Positions 96 through 45,815 of a stretch of DNA of 64,000 nt are shown one piece after another. A model generated the notes under the pieces. The model had not been told where the DNA came from. It saw only the letters and a list, made by a program, of their open reading frames with translations, and did not search any database. Position numbers and translations under genes: made by a program. The stretch is from sequence record PV805632.1; one strand, written 5' to 3'. Positions within the stretch are counted from its first letter, which is position 1. Every line of letters begins with the position of its first letter. This DNA is from a phage.

Positions 96-115
96 GTTGC
101 TCCGCAACTTATGGA
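96..115 (+). promoter_or_regulatory. N4-type virion-RNAP early promoter: hairpin GTTGC-TCC-GCAAC followed by TTATGGA
   Basis: 5-bp inverted repeat with 3-nt loop plus TTATGGA; template strand reads 3'-CAACGAGGCGTTGAATACCT-5', one base off the N4 early promoter consensus as I recall it; about 40 nt upstream of the first ORF. Confidence 0.55.
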
Positions 116-151: not shown

Positions 152-475
152 ATGACTACTACCGCTACTGTACGTATGACCGCAGGAACTCTGCTGGGTA
201 CTGTTAACTCTGCTGCTACTACTGTTGCAGATTCATTCGGTGCTGCTACTAAAGCAGTTGGTATGCTTAATTCTTACGTAGCTACTATGGCAAAGAAACA
301 AGCCATTCGTACTAAATTAGAAATGCATACTTTCGAAAACAAATTAGCTGAAGAAACAGCTATGAACGAGACTATGCGTAAGAAAAGTATCGAAGAATTC
401 TGCAAAGATCCAGAAAACGCTCGTATCTACAACGCAGAATATTCAAGAATAATTGACATCCTGTCTAAAGACTAA
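152..475 (+). CDS. hypothetical early protein (107 aa)
   Basis: ORF track 59..475; start moved to ATG 152 preceded by GGAG 8 nt upstream. Confidence 0.5.
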   Translation: MTTTATVRMTAGTLLGTVNSAATTVADSFGAATKAVGMLNSYVATMAKKQAIRTKLEMHTFENKLAEETAMNETMRKKSIEEFCKDPENARIYNAEYSRIIDILSKD

Positions 476-4400: not shown

Positions 4401-4751
4401 ATGAAAGAAATCTTCGTATTCACTACCAATGTACTTGGGCAGCATACCAATGCTGCTGCCAAGTTAGCTTATAAGAAGCACGGTGCACGTTGGGGTATGG
4501 CTTACGGTCATTATGGTAATAGCTTTGCCATTCCAGTAAGGGATGGCAATGGTAACCGAATTAAAGAGGGTGCTATCTATGGCTTCGTTGAAGGCTTTAT
4601 TTCCTATGCATCTACTAATCCACAGTGGGATTTCAAAGTAATGGGAGATGACTTTCTGGACCCATACCTGTTCAATAATGTTACTGGCAATGTACTGTTA
4701 CCTGAAGCATGGCGTAAACACTTAGGTGATGCTTACAACTACTGGTCATAA
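4401..4751 (+). CDS. hypothetical protein (116 aa)
   Basis: ORF track. Confidence 0.5.
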   Translation: MKEIFVFTTNVLGQHTNAAAKLAYKKHGARWGMAYGHYGNSFAIPVRDGNGNRIKEGAIYGFVEGFISYASTNPQWDFKVMGDDFLDPYLFNNVTGNVLLPEAWRKHLGDAYNYWS

Positions 4752-4755
4752 GAAG

Positions 4756-4775
4756 GGTGCTCCGCACCTTGTGGT
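4756..4775 (+). promoter_or_regulatory. N4-type virion-RNAP early promoter variant: GGTGC-TCC-GCACC + TTGTGG
   Basis: same hairpin geometry and TCC loop as 96-115 and 775-794, stem differs by compensatory changes; in the 48-bp gap upstream of the RNAP II genes. Confidence 0.5.
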
Positions 4776-4799: not shown

Positions 4800-5615
4800 A
4801 TGTACTCATCTATCGAACATCAGAAGCAACTCGAAGTACTATTCAATAAAAATCAGCTCCTGCCAAGGATGCGAAAAGAGTTCGAGGACTCCAAAGAAAT
4901 TGACTTTAAGGCATTCGCTGCCTATTTAGAAATTGATTATAAGCTGCTCATTGATGCAATGGTGCAGATTGCCCTACATAAACGTGCTGACATCCAGACT
5001 ATGATTGGCTCCCTCATGAGCCACTCAGATGATGCTCAGTACATCGCTGACTGTCTGTATAAGATGGCAGAGAATGACTGTTTCAACTATGACCCTACTA
5101 TCGACAAATTCGGTGTTATCTATGAGATTAGTGAAGATGTTCAGATGGAACTGGAAGCATTCCAGTATCCATTACCTATCGTAAGTGCTCCTAATCCTGT
5201 CAGAACTAACAGGGATACTGGTTATTACCAGACTAAAGGAAGCATCATCCTCAAGAAGAACCATCATGAGATGGATGTCTGCCTTGACCACATCAACCGT
5301 ATGAACAATCAACGTCTCTGTGTTAACTGGGACGTTGCTAACTATGTAAAAGACTCTCGTCCTAACATGGATAAACCCAAAGAGGGTGAAACCCGTCAGG
5401 ACTATGAGAAACGAGTTAAAGCCTTTGAGAAGTACAGTCGTACTGCTAAGGAAGTAATGGAGTTAGTGACTCAGGAAGGTAATAACTTCTCACTAGCACA
5501 TAAGTACGATAAGAGAGGGAGAACCTATGCCTGTGGTTACCACATTAACTATGCGGGAACCTCTTATAACAAAGCAGTCATAGAGTTCGCAGATAAAGAG
5601 CTTGTGGAGGACTAA
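4800..5615 (+). CDS. phage RNA polymerase II, small subunit (N4 gp15-like), 271 aa
   Basis: size and position match the N4 two-subunit T7-like RNAP II (about 269 + 404 aa); partner gene downstream carries the catalytic motifs. Confidence 0.6.
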   Translation: MYSSIEHQKQLEVLFNKNQLLPRMRKEFEDSKEIDFKAFAAYLEIDYKLLIDAMVQIALHKRADIQTMIGSLMSHSDDAQYIADCLYKMAENDCFNYDPTIDKFGVIYEISEDVQMELEAFQYPLPIVSAPNPVRTNRDTGYYQTKGSIILKKNHHEMDVCLDHINRMNNQRLCVNWDVANYVKDSRPNMDKPKEGETRQDYEKRVKAFEKYSRTAKEVMELVTQEGNNFSLAHKYDKRGRTYACGYHINYAGTSYNKAVIEFADKELVED

Positions 5616-6229
5616 TGAAAATGTGCAAAGACTGTGGAGAAGTTAAAGACCTCTCCCAGTTTGTACCTAAAGCATCCTGCACAGACGGCTACGAAGTACG
5701 CTGCCGTAGTTGCAGGGTACTCAAATACAATAAAGCTGATCCAGTTAAGATGTTTAAAAAGACATATATCTCTCAGGTGAACCACTCTGTAACGAGAGGT
5801 CATCCACCACCAGCTTATAGTCTGGAAGAGTTATATGACTGGCTGGATAACCAGCCAAACATTCATGAACTATGGGATGCTTACGTCACCAACAACTATG
5901 CTAAGGACTTAAAACCATCAATCGACCGCATAGATGACCTTAAGCCGTATACTCTTGATAACATTCAGTTAATGACGTGGAAAGAGAATAGGAACAAAGG
6001 TGCCAAGAGCAAAAAAGAAGGTGTTATTGGGAAGCATAAACCAGTGATTGCCTACCACTTGGATGGCTCAATCTATAAAGAATTTGTTAGTACCATTGAA
6101 GCTGCTAGACATGTGTCAGGCAGAGCATGGGGAATCACCACGGTAGCTGATGGCATACCAGTAAAGGATGGAAGGGGTAAGCTCTACAATCCTAAAACAT
6201 ACAAAGGCTACATCTGGGCCTGGAAATAA
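5615..6229 (+). CDS. HNH homing endonuclease with C-terminal IENR1/NUMOD-like DNA-binding motif (204 aa)
   Basis: N-terminal Cys cluster CKDCG...CRSC; HNH-like core IDRIDDLKPYTLDNIQLMTWKENRNKG; C-terminal KPV...F.S..EAARH..G.....GYIW motif typical of intron-encoded nuclease repeats. Confidence 0.6.
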   Translation: MKMCKDCGEVKDLSQFVPKASCTDGYEVRCRSCRVLKYNKADPVKMFKKTYISQVNHSVTRGHPPPAYSLEELYDWLDNQPNIHELWDAYVTNNYAKDLKPSIDRIDDLKPYTLDNIQLMTWKENRNKGAKSKKEGVIGKHKPVIAYHLDGSIYKEFVSTIEAARHVSGRAWGITTVADGIPVKDGRGKLYNPKTYKGYIWAWK

Positions 6230-6270: not shown

Positions 6271-7488
6271 ATGCAATTACTTACTGCTCGCGAATATTTG
6301 AAAGTAGACATCGCTAATTCTTATGGTCTGGATAAGAAGACATGGGATGAACGTATTAGCTGGTTCGATGAGAACGAAGCTAACCTGCTTAATCTGGTAG
6401 ATGAAGCTGAAGAATCTGCACTGTTCTATGCAGGTGTAAACGCATGGAAAGATATGAAAGCTGGTAAGCCTATCGGTTATGCCGTAGCTCTGGATGCTAC
6501 ATCATCTGGTTTGCAGTTACTGGCTTGCCTGACTGGTGACCGTTCTGCTGCTGAACTGTGTAACGTAGTTAACTACATGGGAGAGAATGGTAAGCCATTA
6601 CGTCGTGATGCTTATACAGTTATCTATCACAAGATGCTGGACATCCTTGGTGAAGCATCCCGTATTAAACGTAGTGATACTAAGCAGGCAGTTATGACTG
6701 CATTCTATGGTTCAGAAGCTAAGCCTAAAGAAGTATTCGGTGAAGGTATCCGTCTCAAAACTTTTGAGAATGTAATGGAAACAGTTGCTAGTGGACCTTG
6801 GGCACTGAACAAGTTCTTACTGCAATGTGGTAACCCGGATGCTAACCGTTACGTATGGGTACTGCCTGACAACTTCCATGCTGTCATTAAGGTCATGGTT
6901 CCGGAAGTACAGACTGTTAACTTCTTAGGTAAGCCTTTCGACATCACCCGTATGGTTCAGGGTACTGAAGAGAAGACTCGTATGCTCTCTGCTAACATCA
7001 CCCACTCTATTGATGGGATGGTGGTACGTGAGATGCTGCGTCGCTGTAACTTCAACATGAACCAGGTGAACTATATTAAGTCCCTCTGTGAAGGAACCAG
7101 TGAGTATATGCTGGGTACTAGCGAGAATTACGATATGGTTAGTCAACTGTGGCATAACTATGAGAAATCAGGATTCCTGTCTACCCGTATCTTTGATTAT
7201 CTGGATTCTGACTCAATTAAACTGGTTGATACAGATGTAATCATGGCTATGCTTAATACCATGCCTAAGAAACCATTCCCTGTAATGACTGTACACGACT
7301 GCTTCCGTTGTCACCCTAACTATGGCAATGACTTGCGTCGTCAATACAATCAGATTCTGTCTGACATTGCTAAGAGTGATCTACTGGGCTTCATCCTGTC
7401 TCAGGTACTGGGGCAAGAGTTCTCTGCTGGTAAGCTGGATGACAGCCTCTGGCAGGACATTCTTGAAACAGACTATGCATTAAGTTAA
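6271..7488 (+). CDS. phage RNA polymerase II, catalytic subunit (N4 gp16-like, T7-like RNAP), 405 aa
   Basis: T7-RNAP-like motif A (ALDATSSGLQ), motif B (RSDTKQAVMTAFYG) and motif C (TVHDCF). Confidence 0.7.
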   Translation: MQLLTAREYLKVDIANSYGLDKKTWDERISWFDENEANLLNLVDEAEESALFYAGVNAWKDMKAGKPIGYAVALDATSSGLQLLACLTGDRSAAELCNVVNYMGENGKPLRRDAYTVIYHKMLDILGEASRIKRSDTKQAVMTAFYGSEAKPKEVFGEGIRLKTFENVMETVASGPWALNKFLLQCGNPDANRYVWVLPDNFHAVIKVMVPEVQTVNFLGKPFDITRMVQGTEEKTRMLSANITHSIDGMVVREMLRRCNFNMNQVNYIKSLCEGTSEYMLGTSENYDMVSQLWHNYEKSGFLSTRIFDYLDSDSIKLVDTDVIMAMLNTMPKKPFPVMTVHDCFRCHPNYGNDLRRQYNQILSDIAKSDLLGFILSQVLGQEFSAGKLDDSLWQDILETDYALS

Positions 7489-7496
7489 TAAACTGG

Positions 7497-7530
7497 CCTC
7501 ATACCTTCGGGTATGGGGCTTTTATTTTTT
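7497..7530 (+). terminator. intrinsic terminator (CCTCATACC-TTCG-GGTATGGGG + TTTTATTTTTT)
   Basis: hairpin plus T-run read directly. Confidence 0.7.
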
Positions 7531-12695: not shown

Positions 12696-12722
12696 ATAGC
12701 CCAGCATAGCTGGGCTATTTGT
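12696..12722 (+). terminator. hairpin ATAGCCCAGC-ATA-GCTGGGCTAT + TTT
   Basis: 10-bp stem, short T-run. Confidence 0.5.
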
Positions 12723-34553: not shown

Positions 34554-37500
34554 TCAATTTACAAGGTTTATCCAAGGGTTCAGGTTGTGAGCACGAAGAC
34601 CCTGACCAAAGCCCCATGAGTAATCCAGACTACCCTTAGCAGCAATACTAAAGATGTTGTCCTGAATAGGTAAGCCAACATTACCAAACATGGTAGGAGT
34701 TGGAGCCAACATCGCCATTGCTGCATGTACTGGGTTGTTACGAATCATGGACACTGCAACCTTAGCTGAACGAATCTTAAAGTTGTAGAACCACATCAAA
34801 CCAACGCTTTCCATATACCCACGGAAGCGACCAGGCAGACGGTCATAGTTAATGAACTCTTCGGTTACACGTCCCAGTGCTTCTTCACGAGTCTTACCTT
34901 TACGCTGGGTCAATTCATCATAGATGATTGCTTTAGCGATAAAGTCAGAGTACTCAACCGTCTTCTGGATACCCTGGAACAGAGCAGTATCCTTAGTGAT
35001 AAGTGCATAACGACCAGCAGCACGTACAGACTTAGGTAACTTATCCGCCAGCTTTTCCATGTATTCGTGAAGTTTACCTTCAGTAATCAGGATGTCATCA
35101 CGACCAATACCAGCATCTGCAATTGAAGAGAACTCACCAGCTTCTATCAGAGGCCAGATACTCATACGCTTATGGCTATCAGTAATGGACTGAATCTCAG
35201 CCTTAAGTTTACGAATCTGGTTCGGGTTAGTAGCTGCACGTAATTCTGCTTCTGCATCTACCTGACGTAAACGAGATTTAAGGTATTGGTTAATCTCAGC
35301 AGTCTTCCGTGGAATGCTCTTAGCAATGCTCTTAACCGGTACACCACGAGCAACCATCTGGTAAAGGTTAGCCAAAAAGTTAACAACAGGTACGACTACT
35401 GACTTAACTACAATCAGAGTCTTAGCATCTTTAACTAAATTTTGAACCAGGTTCTCACCACCCATTAAGTACTTATAGGCACGGTTACCGGCTAAACCCA
35501 GAATAGCTTTTTTAAAAGTATTAAGCGTTTCCGGGGACCAACGAGAATTACCAGACCAAGCATCACCAATCGAAGCTGCACGATAGCCAAGTGCATCATT
35601 CAGCATGTCACGACGTACCCACAGTTCACCCTCACCAAACAGTTTTTCTGCTTTCCGTCGAGTTTCACTGTTCATCAGCTTAAGAGCATCAGCAGTTACT
35701 GGGTCCAGTTTAGAACCAAAAAGGTTCACGTACTGGGACTTATTAGCAGCAGACATCTTAATGTCTTCCTTGTACATGCTATACAGGTTCTCAATCAGCA
35801 TATCGTTGAAACGCTGAGCCTTAGCTTCTTCCACCTGACGACCACGCCATACACCAATTGCACGGGCAAGATGATTTTCACCTTCAATATGCTTCAGCAT
35901 ATTAGGGTTAATTGATTCCTCATAAGCAACCACATCACCTTTAGCATTATATACGGGCAATAGTGGTTCATTACCACGTTCACCACGAGCTAGTGCTTTA
36001 GCGATACGGTCTACAGAAGGCTTGTCAGTAATACGACCAGCTACCATGGAACCCATCGTAAAGCCTGTACCGAGGTCTACACCACCAGCAGTATTACGAA
36101 CGTTCTGTAGAATACCTTGTGAGAACGGAGCCTGTGCCTGTACTGGGGCAAAGTAGTAGCTACGTGCCAGACCTCGGTTAGCAGAGCTACCTTGATAAGT
36201 ACTCAGACGTACATAGGACTTCTCTATCAAATCACCAAACTGGCTATCTTCAGCAACAACCAGACTAACACCCTGTTTAGTCTCACTAGGGATATACCCT
36301 TTGTACTGGTTCAGGGTTGCACGCATATTAGATTTGGCTTTAGCCATTTCATCTTTACGCTGCCCAACCAGGTAAGAAGTAGCAAAGTCCATTCCCTCAA
36401 CTTCTGTCTGAGCCAGTGAAGATAACATCTCACGGTCGGACTTGTTCATTGCTTCCAGTGCATACAGGGTAATAAGTTTATCCAGTTGAGCTACATCTAC
36501 AATAGAGCGAGTAGTCTTACGTTCACCTAACATACGAGAGATTGCAGTAGCATTCCGCAGCAAGTTTTTACCGACTGTGCCATTAATCATGTACTGAGCC
36601 AGTTGCTTAGATTTACGGTTAATCAGAGGCCAGTTACGACCAGCTTGTTTCTGCAAATCTGCTTCCAGCTTATTCACTTCACGGTCAACAATCTTCTGGT
36701 CAGATAGCAGGTCACGGATTTCAGCCAGAGACATGGTGTCACGCAGGACAGCTAAGTCAGTTTTACCCATACCAGTGTACATTGCTTTCCACTCATCCTT
36801 AGTCAGCTTACGGCTGAACTTAGATGCGATAGTGGTAGGCAGGTGTTCACGGAACTGCTGACGGTCAGCCTGCACCTGTGCACGAACTGCTTTAATCAAA
36901 TCGTATACAGAAGCATTACTCTTAGTACGACCGGTTAAGTCATTAACCAGGTCATGGAAAGGTTGCCATACTTTACCCTGGTTCATTGCAACCATAACGC
37001 CTTCAGCTACGTTTGCACCATTCTTCTCTGTAGCAATAGCAGCCATTAGTTGTGCAGCATGAGCAGCACCCTTAACCAATGGATTTTTGGTATTGGCTGC
37101 AACTTCACGAGCACTTTCTAAAACACGGGTAGACAGTACATCAATAGAGTCCACCAAATACTGGTTAGCACGGTCAATAGCATTACCACTAGGAGTAGCA
37201 ACGGAATCATAGAATGACTGTGCATTAAGGCTAGTCTGCATGATTGTTTGAGCCAGTGCATCCATACCTTCCTGTACGTTGGTAGCTTTAGTGTCACCTG
37301 CTACACGAGCATTCAGGCTTGCCATTGCAGCAGTACCAATGTTAGTCAGCATTGCATCGACGGTATTCCCAGATTTCTTATCTGCTTTCATAACAGGAAT
37401 GTTAGCCAGTACATTACGTACCTCTTCACTTACCATTGCCAGACCAACAAAGGTAGGCAGTATTGAAGAACGACCCTGCGCATCAAACTCAATATTGTTA

Positions 37501-40500
37501 GCACCCATGATGGTATCGAACTTCTGCTGTGCATAGTAACGGTCAGCAGGGTTAGTACTATCTGGGTCAGTCATGAATGATTCAACAGTCAGGTTCTTAG
37601 TAACGTGTGCATAGTATTCCTGTGCACGAGAAAGAGCAGCCGGACTAATAGCAGCTTCAGTAGCGAGTGCAGCAACAATGTTAGTAAAGAGACGCTGCTC
37701 CTGCATATTCATAGTGAAGCCATGAGCCTGAACATCACGGGTTACTTTAGTTGCGTGCTTTTTCGCATCAGAGAACTTACCTTCACGGATTACTTGCTGT
37801 ACTGGTTCTGAACCAATGTAGTTAGTAATCAGCTTATCAAATGTCTGTCCTAACTCTTCCAGACGGGTATTGTCACCATATGCTTTGTTATGGAACAAGG
37901 TAGTATCTTTGGCTACAGCAGCCGTAGGAGCCTGTCCACGCATAACTACTGAAGAGTTAAACAGTAAGCCAGAGAACATATCATCTGCATTAGCAGGTGC
38001 TTTCTTGCGACCAAATACCAGACGTTTGATTGCTTCATATACTGACTGAACCATGGCTTTCAGTGCAGTGGTCTTCTTCTGCTTACTAATTAATTCACGG
38101 TTAGTTAAGCCCCAAGCCATGTACTCATTCAGTGCAGCAGCTTTAGCCATTGCTGGTTCAATAAAGCCGTTAGACAAGTGACCATTAATGGTATTAAGTG
38201 CATCAGCATATGCTTCACGTACTGCCGGAGATTCATCCATAACATCCAGATTACGGAACTGGTTCATCAAGTCTTCAATATTCTGGACTGCTTCATTAGG
38301 AGTACCCTCATAGTGAGCCAGTACAGATTCAAAAGTAGAAGCATGTACTAATTCATGAACCAGAGTCTCTAGGGAAGGGGTAACTAAGTAGATGGTTTTA
38401 TCATCAAAGTTAGTCCAGCCATACGCATTACCAGCTTCGGCAGCTTCAATATCTTCCGGTGCTGGACGAGTAATGTTCTTCTCAATAGCATAGGCATCCA
38501 GTTGAGCAGGAGTACCGTAAACAACTTTGTAGTCTTTAGCAGCAAGGGATTTCTGTATCTCTTTCAATACTGCTTGCTGTTCTGGAGACATCTCTTTAGC
38601 CAGCTTGGTAATAGCAGTATTAGACAATAGACGTACACCAGACTTAAGTACACGACCAACTTGTTCCATTGCTGGCACTTCTTTAACAGGTGCTTCTTTA
38701 GTAGGTACTTCTTTCACTGGATCTGCTTTAGCAGCACGTACTGCATCACGACGCTTATTTAATTCAGCATCAAACAGTTCGTTCAGCTTAGCTACTTGCT
38801 GGTCTACAGTCAGTCCCTCAAGAGAAATTTTACCGTTGTTCACATAAGGAGCACCTACAGCAGCCATCTGGTCAACAGTGGTCTGTACCTGGTTCATTAC
38901 TTTGTGGCGAATATCCACACTTAAAGCAATGTTACGCAGGTTACGCTCAATAAGGTTAACACCTGAATTCTTAATCATATCAATCTTATACTGCCTGTCT
39001 CCCTCAACGCGACTGATATGAGAAAGCTGTTCAAAATCTAAAGCGGAACGGGCAATGTCATCAATTGTCTTATCTGACAACTTATCAAAGTCTACATTCT
39101 TCAAGAACTCAGAGAAGGATTCATATACAGCCTTGATAGGATTCCCCTGCCAGGAAGTGTATACAGCCTCGTTTGCTTTACGACTTGCATCAGTGATGTC
39201 ACTAATACCAATGTTCATACCATCAAAGATTTTCAGGGTATTCTTCGGAGCACCTTTCATAGTAGAAAGGGTCTGCATCATCATGCCATCACCAGTACCG
39301 ATGGTCATAAATGGAATACCTGCAACACCTGCTTGTGAAGGAGCATAGATGCTCATTGGCACACGCATACGGTCATCTAAGTTGGTAGCCAGTACTTGGT
39401 TAGCAACGTCAGTACTCTCACTGCCAGCAAGGTAGAAAGTCTGTGAGCCAGTCTCAATCATTGGAGCCAATGGAGATAATGATTCCTGGATTTCATTCAG
39501 TTCTTTCTGTGTTAAGAAATCACCCTTCTTCCAGGTTGGGTCTTTTTCTTTTTCTGCTAGCTTAGCCTGTACTGCTTGCTGGAACATATCCTGCAATACC
39601 AGAGACTGAATCTGAGTAGCCTTCTGCAAGTTCTCAGTAGAGTACATCAGACCTTCACCAACAGTATTACGGATACCGGTACGCATTGGCTCAACGAACA
39701 AATGGAGCATGTTCTCTTGTAAGTTCTTCAGAGCATTACCGGATACGGTAAATTTCTGAGGGTCTAACTTACCAGTCAGAGCACCATCTACTTCCTTAAT
39801 AAATAACTTACCTTTGCGCTTAGCTGGAATTTTACCAGTCAGTGCTTCCATAGAAGTAAGGAAGGTATCCAGCATAGCCTGAGCATCTGCCTCAGACGCA
39901 GCCTCTTTACCAAACATTGCCATAGCCGGGGAAATGCTGGGGTCAGCAGCACGTGCTTGCAGAACGTCGCTGAAACGTTCGTAGATGGTGTCAGTAATTG
40001 CACCGACTATATTACCAGCAATACCACGTGCACCAGCACCATAGATGGTAATGGTCAGGGGGTTTTTAGCGATGCCACGTTTCAGGTCCAGAGTACCATC
40101 TTCATTCAGGTTAAAGTCTTTAATGAACAGGTCCATTAACTTCTGGAGATGATTTATCTGGTTTATAACTGGAACGTTGTTACGGTAAGTAGTACGTAAC
40201 GCATTCAGTGCTTGTTGCAGACCATTGGTAGATGCTTCATACAAGTCAACATTATCGTCGATAGAACAATGTTCGTTCATCGTTTTACCAGCACGACCGA
40301 AGAACAAACCACCTTTGGCAGTATTCTTAATCCAGTCTGGGGTGAACTTACCACCAGTCATTAATACCATTGCGTTGATTGGGCCGTTGGTTACACCATC
40401 AGCTTCAACGTACAGAGGGGTAGTAAAATTAGCACGGTCATCACTGTTCAGGTAACGGGCATATTCCATCAGGGCCATGAGAGCTACGAAGGATTTGTTA

Positions 40501-43500
40501 TCACCCAGAGAGGTTTTCAGAATATCTACTGCATCAGTAGGTAAATAACCAGACTTATCAAACTCAACCATCATATCAACAGCAGGTTTCAAATTACCTT
40601 CCAGAGCTTTGGTCAGATTTTCAGACATAGCTTCACGGGACATTTTATGTACCTTGATGCCCAATGCCTGAGCCAGACCTAACTGGAAGTCAGAGAATGC
40701 TTGGCTGTTTTCATTACTCAAGTCGATAGTGGAGAAGGTTGGCAGAATTGCTTCACGAACCAGTTTACTGGATTGTGGGTTATTCTTACCAAGCATCTGC
40801 ATACGACCTACACGGGTCATGTTGTAACCGTAGTGAATGGGGGTATCCAAACCATTCTCTTGTTCTTTTAGCTGATTAATTAAACCGAACAAAGAATCAT
40901 ATGCCATAGATACCGATAAGTTCTTACCTTCCAGAGATTTGGCAGTGTTTTCATTCAGCAAATCAGGATTAAGAGAACCAGCACCCATCAGTTCCAGAAT
41001 GCCGTCTCGGCCTAATGCTTCATAGAAGTTAACCATCGGCATGTGTACACGGAACTCCGTAGCCTGTTCAGCTTTCAAAGCAGCTTTCTGTTCCGGGGTA
41101 TTCCTAACAGCAGGGTTACGTAACTGAGTTTGAGCCACGGAAGGAATGTCATCACCGAAGTACGTTTTCTCTTCCGGATTTACCAGCACAGCTTCCTCAA
41201 TTGCTGTAGGGAAATTATTAATAGGGTCTTTATCTGCCAACTTATTAATAGTGTACAAACCAATAGTCTTATTAGAATCCGGGTCAATCTCAGACACATC
41301 CAGCATAGTCTCAGTAACTGCACCCATCTCGATGAGGGAAGACAGAATCTCTGTAGCCATTGCCACTGGAATACCCTTGGTATAACCCAGTGGTGCATTA
41401 GGGTTACGGTTTAAACCCCAGTAGGATTCAATCTTTTGAGCCAGTGAGTTAGTAGCCTCAATCAGAGTCTGGGCATTCTCGAACTCAGCCAGAATACTTT
41501 CTGGTAACAGAGATGCATCTACACCAGTAATAGCAGCCACGTCTTTCATATCTTTAATGGCAGCATTCTGTGTAGCAGTCAGTCGCCATTGCAGACCAGC
41601 AAGTACAGCAGTCTCTAACAACTGGTCATTGAACTTAAAGGTATCTCCATCTTTCTCTACGATGTTAAGTAACTTACCACCTACCCAACGGTTAGCCTCA
41701 GTACCTTCTGCAAAACGTTTACCAACATTTTTATTAGCAAGGAACTTAGCCAGTCGTTCAGACAGAGTAGCCTTCAGAGTTTCCCCAAAGTCCATCAAGT
41801 CTTGATAGCGTTCTAACACATCACCTGCGAGAACGTTATTTTCTTTTTGAGTGAACGCTTCAAAGCGAGCAGCAGAAGACAGTGCTTGCTTGATATCAGC
41901 CAAAGGAGATTCAGAACCAATGGTACGGGACTTAGGTTCTTCCGGTAGGGTAAATGCCTTCAGGAACTGGTTCGGTGTCTTCTCATTGTTATAGACAGGG
42001 AACACTGCTTCCATTCCAGAAAGGGGTTTGCCACCCACTGTATAATCTGCTTTCAGCTGAGCCAGTGATACTTCATCCTTCTCCACGTTGTTAGTGTTAC
42101 GACCAGTGGTATCTACACCAACCAGAATCTGTGCATTATTGGCTTCAACGAAAGACTGAACAGTATTGAATTGTTCAGCAGTCAGCTTCTGATTATCAAA
42201 CAGTTGCAGAGATACAAATGGTTGTTCACTGCCTTTATAGAAGGTAGAGCGAATAGCACCTGTATCCAGGGACATATCACGATACCCATCATGCCCAAAT
42301 ACGTCGGACAGGCTGATATGGTCGCCATTAGAACCAACCACAGTACCATCAGCAAACAGCCATGGACTCTCCCTACGATCACCATACTTATTAAGAGTTT
42401 CCTGTGAAATAGTATTTTCTTTCACATAGGCATCTCTTTCAGATTCAGTAGGTTGCTCGATGGTATCCTCATTAGTGGGGGTAGCATCATCTACAACCGG
42501 GCTAGTCTTTTCAGACTTAGGTACTTTCTCTTCCTGTACAGGTGTAACTTCTGGCTGGGAGAATGTATTACGTACATAGTTCATAAAATCATTACGTGCT
42601 TGAGAAGGAGAAGACCATACTTCCCGTGTGCTACGTAAACTAAAGATTCGACCTTCAGGAGTCATTACGTAAGGTACATTTGTTTTACCGTACTTAAATG
42701 AAGTGAGTACATCTGACTTACCAGTAACAGTGCTTTCCCCTGGAATGACAATAGTCTTACCACCAGTAGAGGGAACAGCACGAACACCCTCAATATCCTT
42801 ACCAAGAGAAATATACTCTTTACCGTTGTAATCAAAGTACTGACCTATCTGCATATAGGTAGCTTGTTGCTTACCAGTAAACTCAGCAGTTTTCATCTCC
42901 GGGCCGTTAGGTACAGACGTACTTTCAGACTTAGGCTTAGATACTTTCTCTGGTTCTGACTTAGACTCTACAGTGTTAGGAGCAGTTTTATTGTTTACCA
43001 CTGGTTTAGCTTTAGACTGTACAGTAGTAGTGTCCTCTTGCACTGGTGCAGGGGTTTCATCAACCTGATTCACTGGTTCATTAGTCTGTTGGGACTGAGT
43101 GGCATTAAGACCACCTTGACGGAACTCTTTAACTACCTGGGCAGCTGGCTTGTTCAGACGTGAATCCAACGAGGTAACTTTCACATGAGAAACATTAAGC
43201 TCCGGGTAAGCCGTAGCAAGTGCGTTAGCAATATCAGCTACGGTCTTAGCTTCCAGCGCTACTTGCTGGGCAAACTTAACAGACTTGGTATCATAAGGAT
43301 TAACACCGAGGCCAGTACGACTACGTACCCATTCACGCGTAGGCGTGAGAGCCTGATAATGAACAGACTTATTCTTATCCGCATTCCCCGAAATCAGATG
43401 CTCATTCAACGCTCCGACCTTATTCTGCATGTGCTGGGCGAACTTCATAAAATCGCTCAGATAAGCGGAGGCCAAATCGAAGTTACCAGAGTTATACGCA

Positions 43501-45815
43501 GAACGAATGCGTTTCGCATGTTGCAACGCAGAGTACTGTCCTTCATTAGAACGAGACTCGTCGGTTTTAATCTGTTTACTAACGATGTCTTGACGACGTA
43601 AGCCCAGTTCTTCTGCTTTAGCATCATACTCACGTGCACCCTGTAACAGAGCAGCAGCTGATTGCAGGGCAGCACGTTGACGATTATTCAGTGTAATCTT
43701 ACCCTCACTCGCATGCTTCAGAACCATGTTCACTGAATCTGCATCCAGTACTTCTGGAGACACATCAGCAGCCATAGCAATGTTGTTTGCTTGGGCTTGG
43801 TTAGCTTCTTCAGTAGCTTTCAGCTTACCTGCTTCAGCCTGTTCCTGAATCATAGAATGGATGGCACGGAATGCACGAAGTACTTTAGGGGTATTCTGTA
43901 TGTTAGCCATCAGACCGGAGAACTGGTCTACGATTGCAGCAGCAGGGGAACCTTGTTCCAGATTAGCCAGTGCACCTGGGTCACGGTTAATGAAGCTATC
44001 CATAGACATGATGTTGTCATACATCTGGATTGCAGCTTCCATTTGAACGTTAGGGTCTTCAGCAGTATTAACCAGGTCAGCCATCTTCTGAATAGCTTCC
44101 ACACGGTTAGTGGAACCAGAAACAGCTTCGCGGATTACTGGGTTAGCTTGCTCCAATTCTACTGGGTCAAACTTCATTGCCTGAGTTAAATCAGCAGCAT
44201 ACTGGGTAGCAGCAGCCTTCTCTTCTGGAGTGATATCCATTGCATCTACTGCTTCCTGTACAGTTGCTTGTGCTTGCTCTGCCTGAGCAGCAGCTTCCTG
44301 TGCAGCAGCATTAACCGTAGCATCAGCTACAGGGGATGCTTGTTCATTACGCTTAGCAACTTCTTCACCACGTTGAACCAGGATGTTAGTAAGAGGAGAT
44401 GCAGCTTTTGCTAATGTTTTACCAACCAGAGAAGCACCAGCCAGAGTAGTACGAAGAGCAGGGCCAGCAGCAGCACCGGCAGCTTTAACAGTTGCACCAG
44501 GAGCTTGAGCAACCCCAGCACTACCGAAGCCATAAAGTGCACCAAGACCAGCTTGCTCACCAACCCCTTTGAGAGTATCTCGGGATGCATCAACATTTTC
44601 CTTGATTGCACGGTTCTGGGCATACTGACCAAAGCCTGACTGAATACCTTCTTCAACTGTTTCACGTAGCATATTGGAACCAGCACCAGCCAGTGAACCT
44701 ACCTTAAGTGGGTTAAGTTCAAAGCGAGATACCAGTGGACCGGTAGCAGCAGCAACTGGAGCAGTTAAGCCAGCAGCAAGGATACCTGTTTCAGATGCAG
44801 TCTGACGACGTGCTTCATCAGGAGATAAACCATCGGCAATATGTTGTTGGTAAACAGGAGACTTACTTGCCAGTTCTGGATGGGACATCTTCATGATTTC
44901 AGAAGCAGTCTGTTGGTATGCACCACCAGCTTCCATAGCACCGATTGCAATAGCAGGTGCAGCAACACGACCAGTAGACAATGCAACCTGTGCAGGACGT
45001 GAACCCAACCCAGCAGCTAAGGTAATACCCTTAACAGCTTTATCACCACCTACCATTACTTTACCGAGTGCAGATACACCACGGATAAGTGGACCACCGG
45101 TAAAGAGGGAACCAACACCTTCACTCAGTCCATCTGAGGCAGCCATACCATTATCAAGTGTGTTAGCAACAGAGTCGAAAGCGTCACGACCAATACGAGA
45201 CAGGGAGGCAACCAAATCGCTCTCCCCGTTTTTGATATCCTGTTCATAGAGTTTCTGGTTCTTTTGGGCAGAAATCTGGTTCTGATTCTGAACAACTTTA
45301 CGGGTAGCATTCAGTGCATCAGACTGTAGATTGTGTACACCTTCATTCAACCAATCCATCCCGGAAGCAATGGTTGCCCCGGCATTATCATTGACCAGAC
45401 CTGCGCCAAGAGCAGCAATGCCCCCAAGGGTATTAGCAACACCAAGACCAACACCAGAAAGAGTATCGCCAAATGCTTCTGCGTTAGTACGCTGTTTAGA
45501 TAAGTCCTGACGTACAGCATCCGCAGCATTAGCTCGGCTATTAAGAATCTGTAAACCTTGCTCATTACCGTACTTATTAATGATTTCTAATGGGGAGGCT
45601 TGAGTGAAATCTGCCTGAAGTGAACCTGGTTCGAATGCACCGATTCCAAGATTACCTACTCGTCCAGTCTGGAGATTGTAAGCATTCTCTGGGGTTAATT
45701 GGAAAGGGTTTTGCCCTTGTGCAGCTTGCTTCTGAGAGGTTGCAGTAGAGACATCGACTTGCTTAGCATTAGTGATGCTGTCTGCGAAACCTGCCAGACG
45801 GTCAAATGTTGACAT
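34554..45815 (-). CDS. giant virion-encapsidated RNA polymerase (N4 vRNAP-like), about 3,750 aa
   Basis: single uninterrupted ORF of about 11.3 kb, the hallmark of N4-like phages; start set to ATG 45815 (MSTFDRL) with AGGAAA RBS; no catalytic motif verified by eye. Confidence 0.8.
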   Translation of the reverse strand: MSTFDRLAGFADSITNAKQVDVSTATSQKQAAQGQNPFQLTPENAYNLQTGRVGNLGIGAFEPGSLQADFTQASPLEIINKYGNEQGLQILNSRANAADAVRQDLSKQRTNAEAFGDTLSGVGLGVANTLGGIAALGAGLVNDNAGATIASGMDWLNEGVHNLQSDALNATRKVVQNQNQISAQKNQKLYEQDIKNGESDLVASLSRIGRDAFDSVANTLDNGMAASDGLSEGVGSLFTGGPLIRGVSALGKVMVGGDKAVKGITLAAGLGSRPAQVALSTGRVAAPAIAIGAMEAGGAYQQTASEIMKMSHPELASKSPVYQQHIADGLSPDEARRQTASETGILAAGLTAPVAAATGPLVSRFELNPLKVGSLAGAGSNMLRETVEEGIQSGFGQYAQNRAIKENVDASRDTLKGVGEQAGLGALYGFGSAGVAQAPGATVKAAGAAAGPALRTTLAGASLVGKTLAKAASPLTNILVQRGEEVAKRNEQASPVADATVNAAAQEAAAQAEQAQATVQEAVDAMDITPEEKAAATQYAADLTQAMKFDPVELEQANPVIREAVSGSTNRVEAIQKMADLVNTAEDPNVQMEAAIQMYDNIMSMDSFINRDPGALANLEQGSPAAAIVDQFSGLMANIQNTPKVLRAFRAIHSMIQEQAEAGKLKATEEANQAQANNIAMAADVSPEVLDADSVNMVLKHASEGKITLNNRQRAALQSAAALLQGAREYDAKAEELGLRRQDIVSKQIKTDESRSNEGQYSALQHAKRIRSAYNSGNFDLASAYLSDFMKFAQHMQNKVGALNEHLISGNADKNKSVHYQALTPTREWVRSRTGLGVNPYDTKSVKFAQQVALEAKTVADIANALATAYPELNVSHVKVTSLDSRLNKPAAQVVKEFRQGGLNATQSQQTNEPVNQVDETPAPVQEDTTTVQSKAKPVVNNKTAPNTVESKSEPEKVSKPKSESTSVPNGPEMKTAEFTGKQQATYMQIGQYFDYNGKEYISLGKDIEGVRAVPSTGGKTIVIPGESTVTGKSDVLTSFKYGKTNVPYVMTPEGRIFSLRSTREVWSSPSQARNDFMNYVRNTFSQPEVTPVQEEKVPKSEKTSPVVDDATPTNEDTIEQPTESERDAYVKENTISQETLNKYGDRRESPWLFADGTVVGSNGDHISLSDVFGHDGYRDMSLDTGAIRSTFYKGSEQPFVSLQLFDNQKLTAEQFNTVQSFVEANNAQILVGVDTTGRNTNNVEKDEVSLAQLKADYTVGGKPLSGMEAVFPVYNNEKTPNQFLKAFTLPEEPKSRTIGSESPLADIKQALSSAARFEAFTQKENNVLAGDVLERYQDLMDFGETLKATLSERLAKFLANKNVGKRFAEGTEANRWVGGKLLNIVEKDGDTFKFNDQLLETAVLAGLQWRLTATQNAAIKDMKDVAAITGVDASLLPESILAEFENAQTLIEATNSLAQKIESYWGLNRNPNAPLGYTKGIPVAMATEILSSLIEMGAVTETMLDVSEIDPDSNKTIGLYTINKLADKDPINNFPTAIEEAVLVNPEEKTYFGDDIPSVAQTQLRNPAVRNTPEQKAALKAEQATEFRVHMPMVNFYEALGRDGILELMGAGSLNPDLLNENTAKSLEGKNLSVSMAYDSLFGLINQLKEQENGLDTPIHYGYNMTRVGRMQMLGKNNPQSSKLVREAILPTFSTIDLSNENSQAFSDFQLGLAQALGIKVHKMSREAMSENLTKALEGNLKPAVDMMVEFDKSGYLPTDAVDILKTSLGDNKSFVALMALMEYARYLNSDDRANFTTPLYVEADGVTNGPINAMVLMTGGKFTPDWIKNTAKGGLFFGRAGKTMNEHCSIDDNVDLYEASTNGLQQALNALRTTYRNNVPVINQINHLQKLMDLFIKDFNLNEDGTLDLKRGIAKNPLTITIYGAGARGIAGNIVGAITDTIYERFSDVLQARAADPSISPAMAMFGKEAASEADAQAMLDTFLTSMEALTGKIPAKRKGKLFIKEVDGALTGKLDPQKFTVSGNALKNLQENMLHLFVEPMRTGIRNTVGEGLMYSTENLQKATQIQSLVLQDMFQQAVQAKLAEKEKDPTWKKGDFLTQKELNEIQESLSPLAPMIETGSQTFYLAGSESTDVANQVLATNLDDRMRVPMSIYAPSQAGVAGIPFMTIGTGDGMMMQTLSTMKGAPKNTLKIFDGMNIGISDITDASRKANEAVYTSWQGNPIKAVYESFSEFLKNVDFDKLSDKTIDDIARSALDFEQLSHISRVEGDRQYKIDMIKNSGVNLIERNLRNIALSVDIRHKVMNQVQTTVDQMAAVGAPYVNNGKISLEGLTVDQQVAKLNELFDAELNKRRDAVRAAKADPVKEVPTKEAPVKEVPAMEQVGRVLKSGVRLLSNTAITKLAKEMSPEQQAVLKEIQKSLAAKDYKVVYGTPAQLDAYAIEKNITRPAPEDIEAAEAGNAYGWTNFDDKTIYLVTPSLETLVHELVHASTFESVLAHYEGTPNEAVQNIEDLMNQFRNLDVMDESPAVREAYADALNTINGHLSNGFIEPAMAKAAALNEYMAWGLTNRELISKQKKTTALKAMVQSVYEAIKRLVFGRKKAPANADDMFSGLLFNSSVVMRGQAPTAAVAKDTTLFHNKAYGDNTRLEELGQTFDKLITNYIGSEPVQQVIREGKFSDAKKHATKVTRDVQAHGFTMNMQEQRLFTNIVAALATEAAISPAALSRAQEYYAHVTKNLTVESFMTDPDSTNPADRYYAQQKFDTIMGANNIEFDAQGRSSILPTFVGLAMVSEEVRNVLANIPVMKADKKSGNTVDAMLTNIGTAAMASLNARVAGDTKATNVQEGMDALAQTIMQTSLNAQSFYDSVATPSGNAIDRANQYLVDSIDVLSTRVLESAREVAANTKNPLVKGAAHAAQLMAAIATEKNGANVAEGVMVAMNQGKVWQPFHDLVNDLTGRTKSNASVYDLIKAVRAQVQADRQQFREHLPTTIASKFSRKLTKDEWKAMYTGMGKTDLAVLRDTMSLAEIRDLLSDQKIVDREVNKLEADLQKQAGRNWPLINRKSKQLAQYMINGTVGKNLLRNATAISRMLGERKTTRSIVDVAQLDKLITLYALEAMNKSDREMLSSLAQTEVEGMDFATSYLVGQRKDEMAKAKSNMRATLNQYKGYIPSETKQGVSLVVAEDSQFGDLIEKSYVRLSTYQGSSANRGLARSYYFAPVQAQAPFSQGILQNVRNTAGGVDLGTGFTMGSMVAGRITDKPSVDRIAKALARGERGNEPLLPVYNAKGDVVAYEESINPNMLKHIEGENHLARAIGVWRGRQVEEAKAQRFNDMLIENLYSMYKEDIKMSAANKSQYVNLFGSKLDPVTADALKLMNSETRRKAEKLFGEGELWVRRDMLNDALGYRAASIGDAWSGNSRWSPETLNTFKKAILGLAGNRAYKYLMGGENLVQNLVKDAKTLIVVKSVVVPVVNFLANLYQMVARGVPVKSIAKSIPRKTAEINQYLKSRLRQVDAEAELRAATNPNQIRKLKAEIQSITDSHKRMSIWPLIEAGEFSSIADAGIGRDDILITEGKLHEYMEKLADKLPKSVRAAGRYALITKDTALFQGIQKTVEYSDFIAKAIIYDELTQRKGKTREEALGRVTEEFINYDRLPGRFRGYMESVGLMWFYNFKIRSAKVAVSMIRNNPVHAAMAMLAPTPTMFGNVGLPIQDNIFSIAAKGSLDYSWGFGQGLRAHNLNPWINLVN

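Follow-up and report, generated by a model that had tools for sequence, protein, structure and literature searches.

Three short inverted repeats at the left end of a phage genome (sequence record PV805632.1) are very probably the early promoters of the phage's own virion-packaged single-subunit RNA polymerase (vRNAP), orthologous to promoters P1-P3 of phage N4 and working as they do in N4. The stretch of DNA that we analysed, here called the window, is 64,000 nucleotides long. An earlier note on this DNA had placed the repeats in the N4 virion-RNAP promoter class, and the sequence tests of that proposal, namely architecture, base determinants, synteny and orientation, contacts of the cognate vRNAP and stem covariation, all came out in its favor. 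The three sites are as follows.

96-115, + strand: site 1, predicted early promoter 1 (P1 equivalent), GTTGCTCCGCAACTTATGGA = GTTGC-TCC-GCAAC-TTAT-GG; stem 96-100/104-108, loop 101-103 TCC (template 3'-AGG-5'), spacer 109-112, predicted +1 = G113.
775-794, + strand: site 2, predicted early promoter 2 (P2 equivalent), GACGCTCCGCGTCTTATGGA = GACGC-TCC-GCGTC-TTAT-GG; stem 775-779/783-787, loop 780-782, spacer 788-791, predicted +1 = G792.
4756-4775, + strand: site 3, predicted early promoter 3 (P3 equivalent), GGTGCTCCGCACCTTGTGGT = GGTGC-TCC-GCACC-TTGT-GG; stem 4756-4760/4764-4768, loop 4761-4763, spacer 4769-4772, predicted +1 = G4773.

The earlier note had described three hairpins with the same architecture, a description that is exact to the base at 96-115, 775-794 and 4756-4775. 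Each site contains a perfect 5-bp stem enclosing a 3-nt loop (96-108, 775-787 and 4756-4768). The motif is written here on the + strand, and all three sites are read on the template (-) strand, which at site 2 contains 5'-...TCCATAAGACGCGGAGCGTC...-3'. By sequence, the predicted starts G113, G792 and G4773 lie 10 nt 3' of the last loop base. Conservation of the loop and of a downstream box, TTRTGG, had also been claimed. The loop is indeed TCC at all three window sites; what was taken for a box is better described as a spacer of four T/A-rich nucleotides (-4 to -1) and, directly after it, the start GG (+1, +2).

A scan of the whole stretch, which the note had recommended, found only the three sites on both strands of the 64 kb. 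When we used the pattern GCTCCGCNNNTTRTGG, which covers the core and the 3' side, and allowed one mismatch, there were three matches in 64 kb on both strands compared with 0.07 expected, and none of 100 shuffles reached three. The heptamer GCTCCGC is found at the three sites only on both strands of the window, where base composition leads one to expect about 1.9 occurrences per strand. On the + strand there are 111 perfect hairpins with a 5-bp stem and a 3-nt loop, and the only three with a TCC loop are these sites. The search pattern left the 5' arm unspecified, so that pairing at the variable stem positions is an independent result. These three positions are fully paired at all three sites, for which the chance probability is (1/64)^3 = 3.8e-6. 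The outermost stem pair is G:C at each site, and differences between the stems within the window are confined to the second pair (T:A/A:T/G:C) and the third pair (T:A/C:G/T:A).

A relaxed scan for GC-T[CT]C-GC on both strands returned four GCTTCGC matches, which are not further sites, each of them pairing over 2 bp only. The hairpin at 12706 (ATAGC-TGG-GCTAT-TTGTG) was discarded as a candidate promoter on account of the pyrimidine at the center of its template loop. At 12701-12718 there are two overlapping GC-closed 5-bp hairpins, CCAGC-ATA-GCTGG and ATAGC-TGG-GCTAT (then TTGTG), an arrangement that may be due to chance.

At each of the three sites, the template strand has the 5-bp hairpin as its DNA fold of minimum energy. 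Folding energies range from -4.3 to -6.8 kcal/mol (z about -1.9; 8-13 of 200 shuffles fold as well) and are by themselves unremarkable, the nearest-neighbor DNA folding model missing the sheared G:A loop. The template core at all three sites is 5'-GCGGAGC-3', that is, a GCGNAGC mini-hairpin with N = G. DNA mini-hairpins of this type are extra stable, as has been noted specifically for N4 (Hirao; PMC13037366), and their stability goes beyond what nearest-neighbor parameters capture (PMC13037366). Since these parameters miss the stability of GCGNAGC, the computed folds only modestly beat shuffles. With such a template core, the hairpin of one strand alone should persist, and a very short stem should be stable.

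The first 5.2 kb of the window shares 96% identity with Escherichia phage vB_EcoP_G7C (Gamaleyavirus, Schitoviridae), and its identity to many other G7C-like coliphages is 86-94%. The window opens with the same terminal sequence as the genomes of N4 and G7C and, judging from this shared terminus, its start is the physical left end of the genome of a G7C-like Gamaleyavirus (Schitoviridae). Site 1 lies within the region corresponding to the G7C terminal repeat, and its flanks are conserved across three genera. The right end of G7C (record 71758-72917) repeats the 1160-bp terminal region, including a second copy of promoter 1 (GCTCCGCAACTTATGG, about 71849); the window stops short of the right end of its own genome, and this second copy is visible for G7C only. 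A run of 14 C is found at 32-45, 31 nt from the left terminus. At the same terminal position, G7C and a KP8-like genome each have 7 C and N4 has about 9, and the terminal sequence around the run (GGGCTACACCC..TACAC) is conserved across three genera. The run might play a part in packaging or injection, or be connected with the DNA end.

The genome of N4 (NC_008720) contains three copies of the motif: at 93-108 ahead of gp1 (GTTGC-TTC-GCAAC-TTATGG), at 562-577 ahead of gp2 (AAGAAGC-TCC-GCTTCTT-TTGG) and at 4551-4566 ahead of gp15 (AAGCTGC-TCC-GCAGCTT-TTGG). The early hairpin promoters P1-P3 of N4 were reportedly the subject of work by Haynes and Rothman-Denes in 1985, Glucksmann in 1992 and Gleghorn in 2008. 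The published template oligo for N4 P2 contains CCAAAAGAAGCGGAGCTTC and has the same layout as the window sites (PMC13492108), so that the second N4 site can be equated with P2 and the numbering anchored. In this numbering the template loop reads 3'-A(-12) G(-11) G(-10)-5'; beyond it come C(-9), G(-8), the remaining three bases of the stem, a spacer of four bases and C(+1). Alignment with N4 P1-P3, another check that had been called for, showed that all three window sites match them in architecture and determinants. The statement that copy 1 is one base off the N4 early promoter was accurate as well, N4 P1 being GTTGC-TTC-GCAAC-TTATGGA and the difference a change from -11A to G.

In N4, extrusion and stability of the hairpin need the loop-closing pair -13G:-9C and the loop bases -12A and -10G (PMC4496689). 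The N4 polymerase recognizes -11A/G, -10G, -8G and +1C, and a purine at -1 is required (PMC4496689). We found -13G:-9C, -12A, -11G, -10G, -8G, -1A and +1C/+2C on the template at all three window sites and, counting along the letters alone, +1C is eight nucleotides downstream of -8 in every case. The sites precede homologues of gp1, gp2 and gp15 and point in the same direction as these genes, so that their positions are equivalent to those of N4 P1, P2 and P3. The downstream genes and terminator-like elements are the following.

152-475, + strand: gp1 homologue, the first early gene, 3' of predicted promoter 1 (G7C annotation 'similar to N4 gp1'; phrog_5020, E = 5e-44).
803-1279, + strand: gp2 homologue, 3' of predicted promoter 2 (G7C annotation 'RNAP1 subunit A').
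1289-1308, + strand: terminator-like GC-rich hairpin, then TTTATTTTTA, just 3' of the gp2 homologue (consensus match only).
4800-5615, + strand: gp15 homologue, N4-like middle RNA polymerase subunit, 3' of predicted promoter 3 (phrog_2166 'N4-like RNA polymerase', E = 1e-114).
6271-7488, + strand: gp16 homologue, second middle RNA polymerase subunit and last gene of the predicted promoter-3 unit (phrog_2051 'RNA polymerase', E = 7e-177).
7495-7520: terminator-like hairpin and T-run after the gp16 homologue (terminator scan).

The gp15 homologue is 64% identical to N4 gp15, and site 3 lies 27 nt 5' of its ATG; P3 of N4 is equally placed before gp15. In N4, gp2 is a cofactor of the middle polymerase. 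The annotated ATG of the gp2 homologue (803) is 11 nt from the predicted start G792 and lacks a Shine-Dalgarno sequence. An alternative in-frame ATG at 896 follows GGAGAG (Shine-Dalgarno), and the PHROG family profile covers the protein from residue 32 onward. The 31 codons ahead of this point are nevertheless conserved with the N4 protein (MHP..EIL.FCLG.LTD), and both ATG 803 and ATG 896 stay candidate starts. Between the gp15 and gp16 homologues is an ORF encoding a 204-aa endonuclease VII-like protein (5615-6229, + strand; PHROG 1035) that is probably a homing-endonuclease insertion; the two N4 genes are adjacent.

Directly 3' of the gp1 stop codon there is a perfect 14-bp inverted repeat at 477-507 (TCAATAGGAGGCTC-TTC-GAGCCTCCTATTAA) that is conserved in G7C. 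It is likely to be the terminator of the promoter-1 transcript, though its T-run is on the opposite strand. The hairpin at 1289-1308 likely marks the end of the promoter-2 transcript. One could read the three sites themselves in this way, as intrinsic terminators or attenuators that act at the RNA level on upstream transcripts and use the T-rich stretch as a U-tract. A stem followed by TTAT or TTGT is superficially terminator-like, sites 2 and 3 come after ORFs whose stop codons are at 711 and 4751, and N4 P2 and P3 are followed by TTTT. We nevertheless regard this reading as very improbable because the sites on the + strand fail even a lax terminator scan, which flagged the reverse strand of sites 2 and 3 only, opposite to all local genes, and because site 1 has no gene upstream of it, the end of the genome being 96 nt away. 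An invariant asymmetric TCC loop, a GC/GC core and a GG exactly 4 nt past the stem are needless for a terminator. Moreover, proper GC-rich hairpins with T-runs are found separately, at 1289-1308 and 7495-7520.

We examined the stems in related phages using the gp15 homologue as an anchor that is independent of the motif. This retrieved 30 related loci from viral contigs. The covariation set comprised the window and the 16 loci with a gp15 at least 54% identical, making 17 genomes, and sites in the relatives were chosen only by GCTYCGC-N7-GG, with the 5' arm unused. In these 17 genomes, 50 of the 51 GCTYCGC-N7-GG sites are on the gene-sense strand at the left end. The 5' arm is fully paired in all 50 of the gene-sense sites, and the lone match on the opposite strand is the only mismatched one. 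There are three or four sites per complete left end and one only in two incomplete or more divergent loci.

Collapsing these to 31 distinct sites, we found that 155 of 155 stem pair cells are Watson-Crick. The compensatory stem changes proposed in the earlier note are thus real, the stems differing between the window sites and always remaining complementary. Both partners vary at three of the five stem pairs, where the pair types are GC/CG, AU/CG/GC/UA and UA/CG/AU. Shuffles gave a covariation score of 0.107, and none of 500 reached the 0.582 of the 31 sites; the sites share descent, so this control overstates their independence. When the partners were slid by 1-3 columns, pairing fell to 13-47%. 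By our own count there have been at least about five separate double substitutions among orthologous sites (P1 GTT to CAT; P3 GGT, GCT, GCA; P2 GAC, GAA). The two inner pairs, the loop (TYC in the site selection), the GG and its spacing are invariant across the relatives, the presence of GG at 31 of 31 sites being partly a result of the selection criterion. The spacer varies at its four bases, though these are rich in T and A. The P1 stem GTTGC is common to the window, G7C, N4 and KP8-like genomes, which represent three genera.

These data also bear on whether the inverted repeats are double-stranded operators for a dimeric DNA-binding protein, either a phage or a host regulator. Palindromes are typical of operators, and the repeats are intergenic and located before regulatory genes. 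However, the outer three stem pairs vary both within the genome and among relatives and are always complementary, which argues for selection for pairing rather than for a sequence read in the duplex. In addition, the core GC-TCC-GC is asymmetric, 50 of 50 sites share their orientation relative to the downstream genes, and a fixed distance to GG would not be expected of an operator. We therefore give this alternative very little credence.

Distant Schitoviridae loci (gp15 27-39% identical) were kept out of the covariation test, and the GC-TCC-GC motif is absent from them. On three distant metagenomic Schitoviridae-like contigs with a gp15 that is 33-37% identical (L043 2565-4900, L036 4270-5130 and L034 5612-6640), we observed three to five co-oriented GC-TTC-GC hairpins 5' of the gp15 homologue. 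Their GG is two bases further from the stem than in phage N4, as in TGGGC-TTC-GCCCA-TG-N4-TGG. They are probably promoters of this class that have -11A and are spaced differently.

Promoters of this kind call for a cognate vRNAP, and the window contains a gene for one.

34554-45815, - strand: vRNAP gene, homologous to N4 gp50 (about 3753 aa when counted from the ATG aligned with the start of the N4 protein; as called mechanically, the ORF extends to TTG 45833).

The ORF matches solved N4 vRNAP chains over their full length (E = 0). An alignment with N4 gp50 showed 66% identity over the whole protein and 70% within the polymerase domain. In the 3759-aa ORF, this domain comprises about residues 1263-2368, the part that aligns with N4 mini-vRNAP. 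All seven residues that contact bases or backbone of the hairpin outside the intercalating hairpin (K114, R119, W129, K849, K850, D901 and R904) are conserved in the window vRNAP, and so are K268 and the catalytic residues D559 and D951. The window vRNAP is predicted to be the enzyme that reads the three hairpins. At position 267 in the beta-intercalating hairpin, the K of N4 is N in the window phage. K267 and K268 of N4 melt the base of 7-bp stems. We considered a link between K267N and the short 5-bp stems and rejected it; N-K is the usual combination in 15 relatives with 5-, 6- or 7-bp stems, and K-K at 267/268 in N4 is the exception among the relatives compared. The window vRNAP also has an insertion of about 255 extra residues compared with N4 gp50 (approximately 42040-42910, - strand; residues approximately 975-1262), located between the N-terminal and polymerase domains. 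Its composition is not low-complexity, it looks like one or two folded domains, and a Pfam search with this vRNAP-specific insertion yielded no match.

It is conceivable that a different polymerase uses the sites, either the host sigma-70 RNAP or the phage middle polymerase formed by the gp15 and gp16 homologues. The positions are promoter-like, and middle promoters of phage LUZ7 have been reported to be GC-rich hairpins too (PMC9163698). Against this, the sites are free of overlapping sigma-70-like matches, of which the region contains 10 versus 19.9 in shuffles. The middle polymerase cannot be the first to read sites that drive its own genes, and in N4 the middle promoters have T at the start and another consensus (PMC9163698). 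The match to the vRNAP determinants is complete, and use by another polymerase is highly unlikely.

For the preferred reading, early promoters served by the vRNAP, the injection of the enzyme, initiation on extruded hairpins, SSB dependence and the start sites are inferred from N4 biochemistry (PMC4496689). In N4, hairpin extrusion is gyrase-dependent and driven by supercoiling, and host SSB activates transcription (PMC4496689). In the window phage, the left end of the genome would enter the cell and gyrase-driven negative supercoiling would extrude each inverted repeat as a cruciform. The template arm, 5'-GCGGAGC-3' plus the three variable pairs, would fold into a mini-hairpin of unusual stability in which -10G and -12A form a sheared pair, and the opposite arm would be melted by host SSB. 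The injected vRNAP would then bind the template hairpin, holding -11G in a pocket (R119, W129) and contacting -10G with K114, while its specificity loop would contact -9C/-10G through D901 and -8G through R904. RNA would begin with GTP opposite +1C, eight nucleotides from -8, at G113, G792 and G4773. The resulting early transcripts would encode gp1, gp2 and the two middle RNA polymerase subunits.

A more speculative and on balance rather doubtful idea is that the variable stem pairs are not neutral filler and may set a promoter-specific extrusion threshold or polymerase affinity. It would fit with the way in which the stem at each genomic position tends to stay the same even between distantly related phages and with the reduction of all three promoters in the window lineage to 5-bp stems with -11G. 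If true, such tuning could give a hierarchy of early promoters unlike that of N4, perhaps with a different timing of transcription-coupled genome entry, and would refine a known system in quantitative terms.

These results provide an early transcription map of a G7C-like phage in which predicted starts at 113, 792 and 4773 lead to gp1, gp2 and the middle-polymerase genes. The hairpin-promoter code of N4, comprised of a GC-TCC-GC core, a free but paired outer stem and a GG four bases past the stem, is exceptionless in the sampled Enquatrovirinae genomes. Because the code holds across these genomes, GCTYCGC-N7-GG with a paired 5' arm should be a reliable annotation rule for Enquatrovirinae. The mechanism is textbook for N4, so the sites raise no new question.

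The window sites share with N4 P1-P3 a template hairpin closed by a G:C pair next to a 3-nt loop (3'-A-R-G-5'), with -8G, four A-rich spacer nucleotides on the template and +1C/+2C, and like them they occur as three copies at the left end. They differ in several details. All three window sites have -11G compared with -11A in N4 P1. The window stems are all of the minimal 5 bp, whereas N4 P2 and P3 can pair over 7 bp, and the variable stems of sites 2 and 3 are GAC and GGT compared with GAA and GCT in N4. The spacer is TTAT or TTGT in the window and TTTT at N4 P2 and P3. The polymerases differ as well, the window vRNAP having N at 267 and about 255 extra residues ahead of the polymerase domain. 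The GCGNAGC mini-hairpin is a structural motif and not a functional family; in the window it is embedded in a longer stem and is predicted to be read by a polymerase.

Among closer relatives, the putative P2 of Klebsiella phage KP8 (AAGACGCTCCGCGTCTTATGGA) holds the hairpin and start of window site 2 (GACGCTCCGCGTCTTATGGA) (PMC6950046, Table 1), and KP8 P1 has the same stem and loop as site 1 (PMC6950046). KP8 has four putative promoters, P1-P4, with two before gp2, compared with exactly three in the window (PMC6950046). G7C (HQ259105) contains 25-mers identical to all three window sites. It also has an extra TCC hairpin just after gp1, AACGC-TCC-GCGTT (503-515 of its locus, L001), followed by GTTTCG and with no GG start. 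This extra hairpin lies within an 85-bp segment that is absent from the window (compare window 466-467). The window also lacks, at approximately 700-740, a segment of about 370 bp that carries gp1.2 in G7C (about 790-1195 of G7C). The gp1.2 segment is bounded in G7C by a direct repeat (GATAAGTAAAATGTCCCTGAATCTAAATCACCGTAAGAA), suggesting that it was deleted or inserted by recombination between the repeats. The GenBank record of G7C has no annotated promoters, and our search of the literature other than the original G7C paper found no description of hairpin promoters for Gamaleyavirus or G7C.

In LUZ7, a phage of a distant genus, the 5' ends of early hairpin promoters have been mapped by ONT-cappable-seq (PMC9163698). 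These promoters are also vRNAP-dependent and early; their stems have 4 bp or more, their 3-nt loop is conserved and the start is a G (PMC9163698). However, the start in LUZ7 is 13-14 bp from the hairpin center compared with 11 nt (-11 to +1) in the window and N4, and LUZ7 has nine early starts compared with three (PMC9163698). Comparable hairpin promoters have been predicted in LUZ7, LIT1 and PEV2 (PMC3715699) and in CB1, CB3 and CB4 (PMC6027278). N4 early transcription is defined by hairpin promoters of this type, and the set in the window is what would be expected of such a phage.
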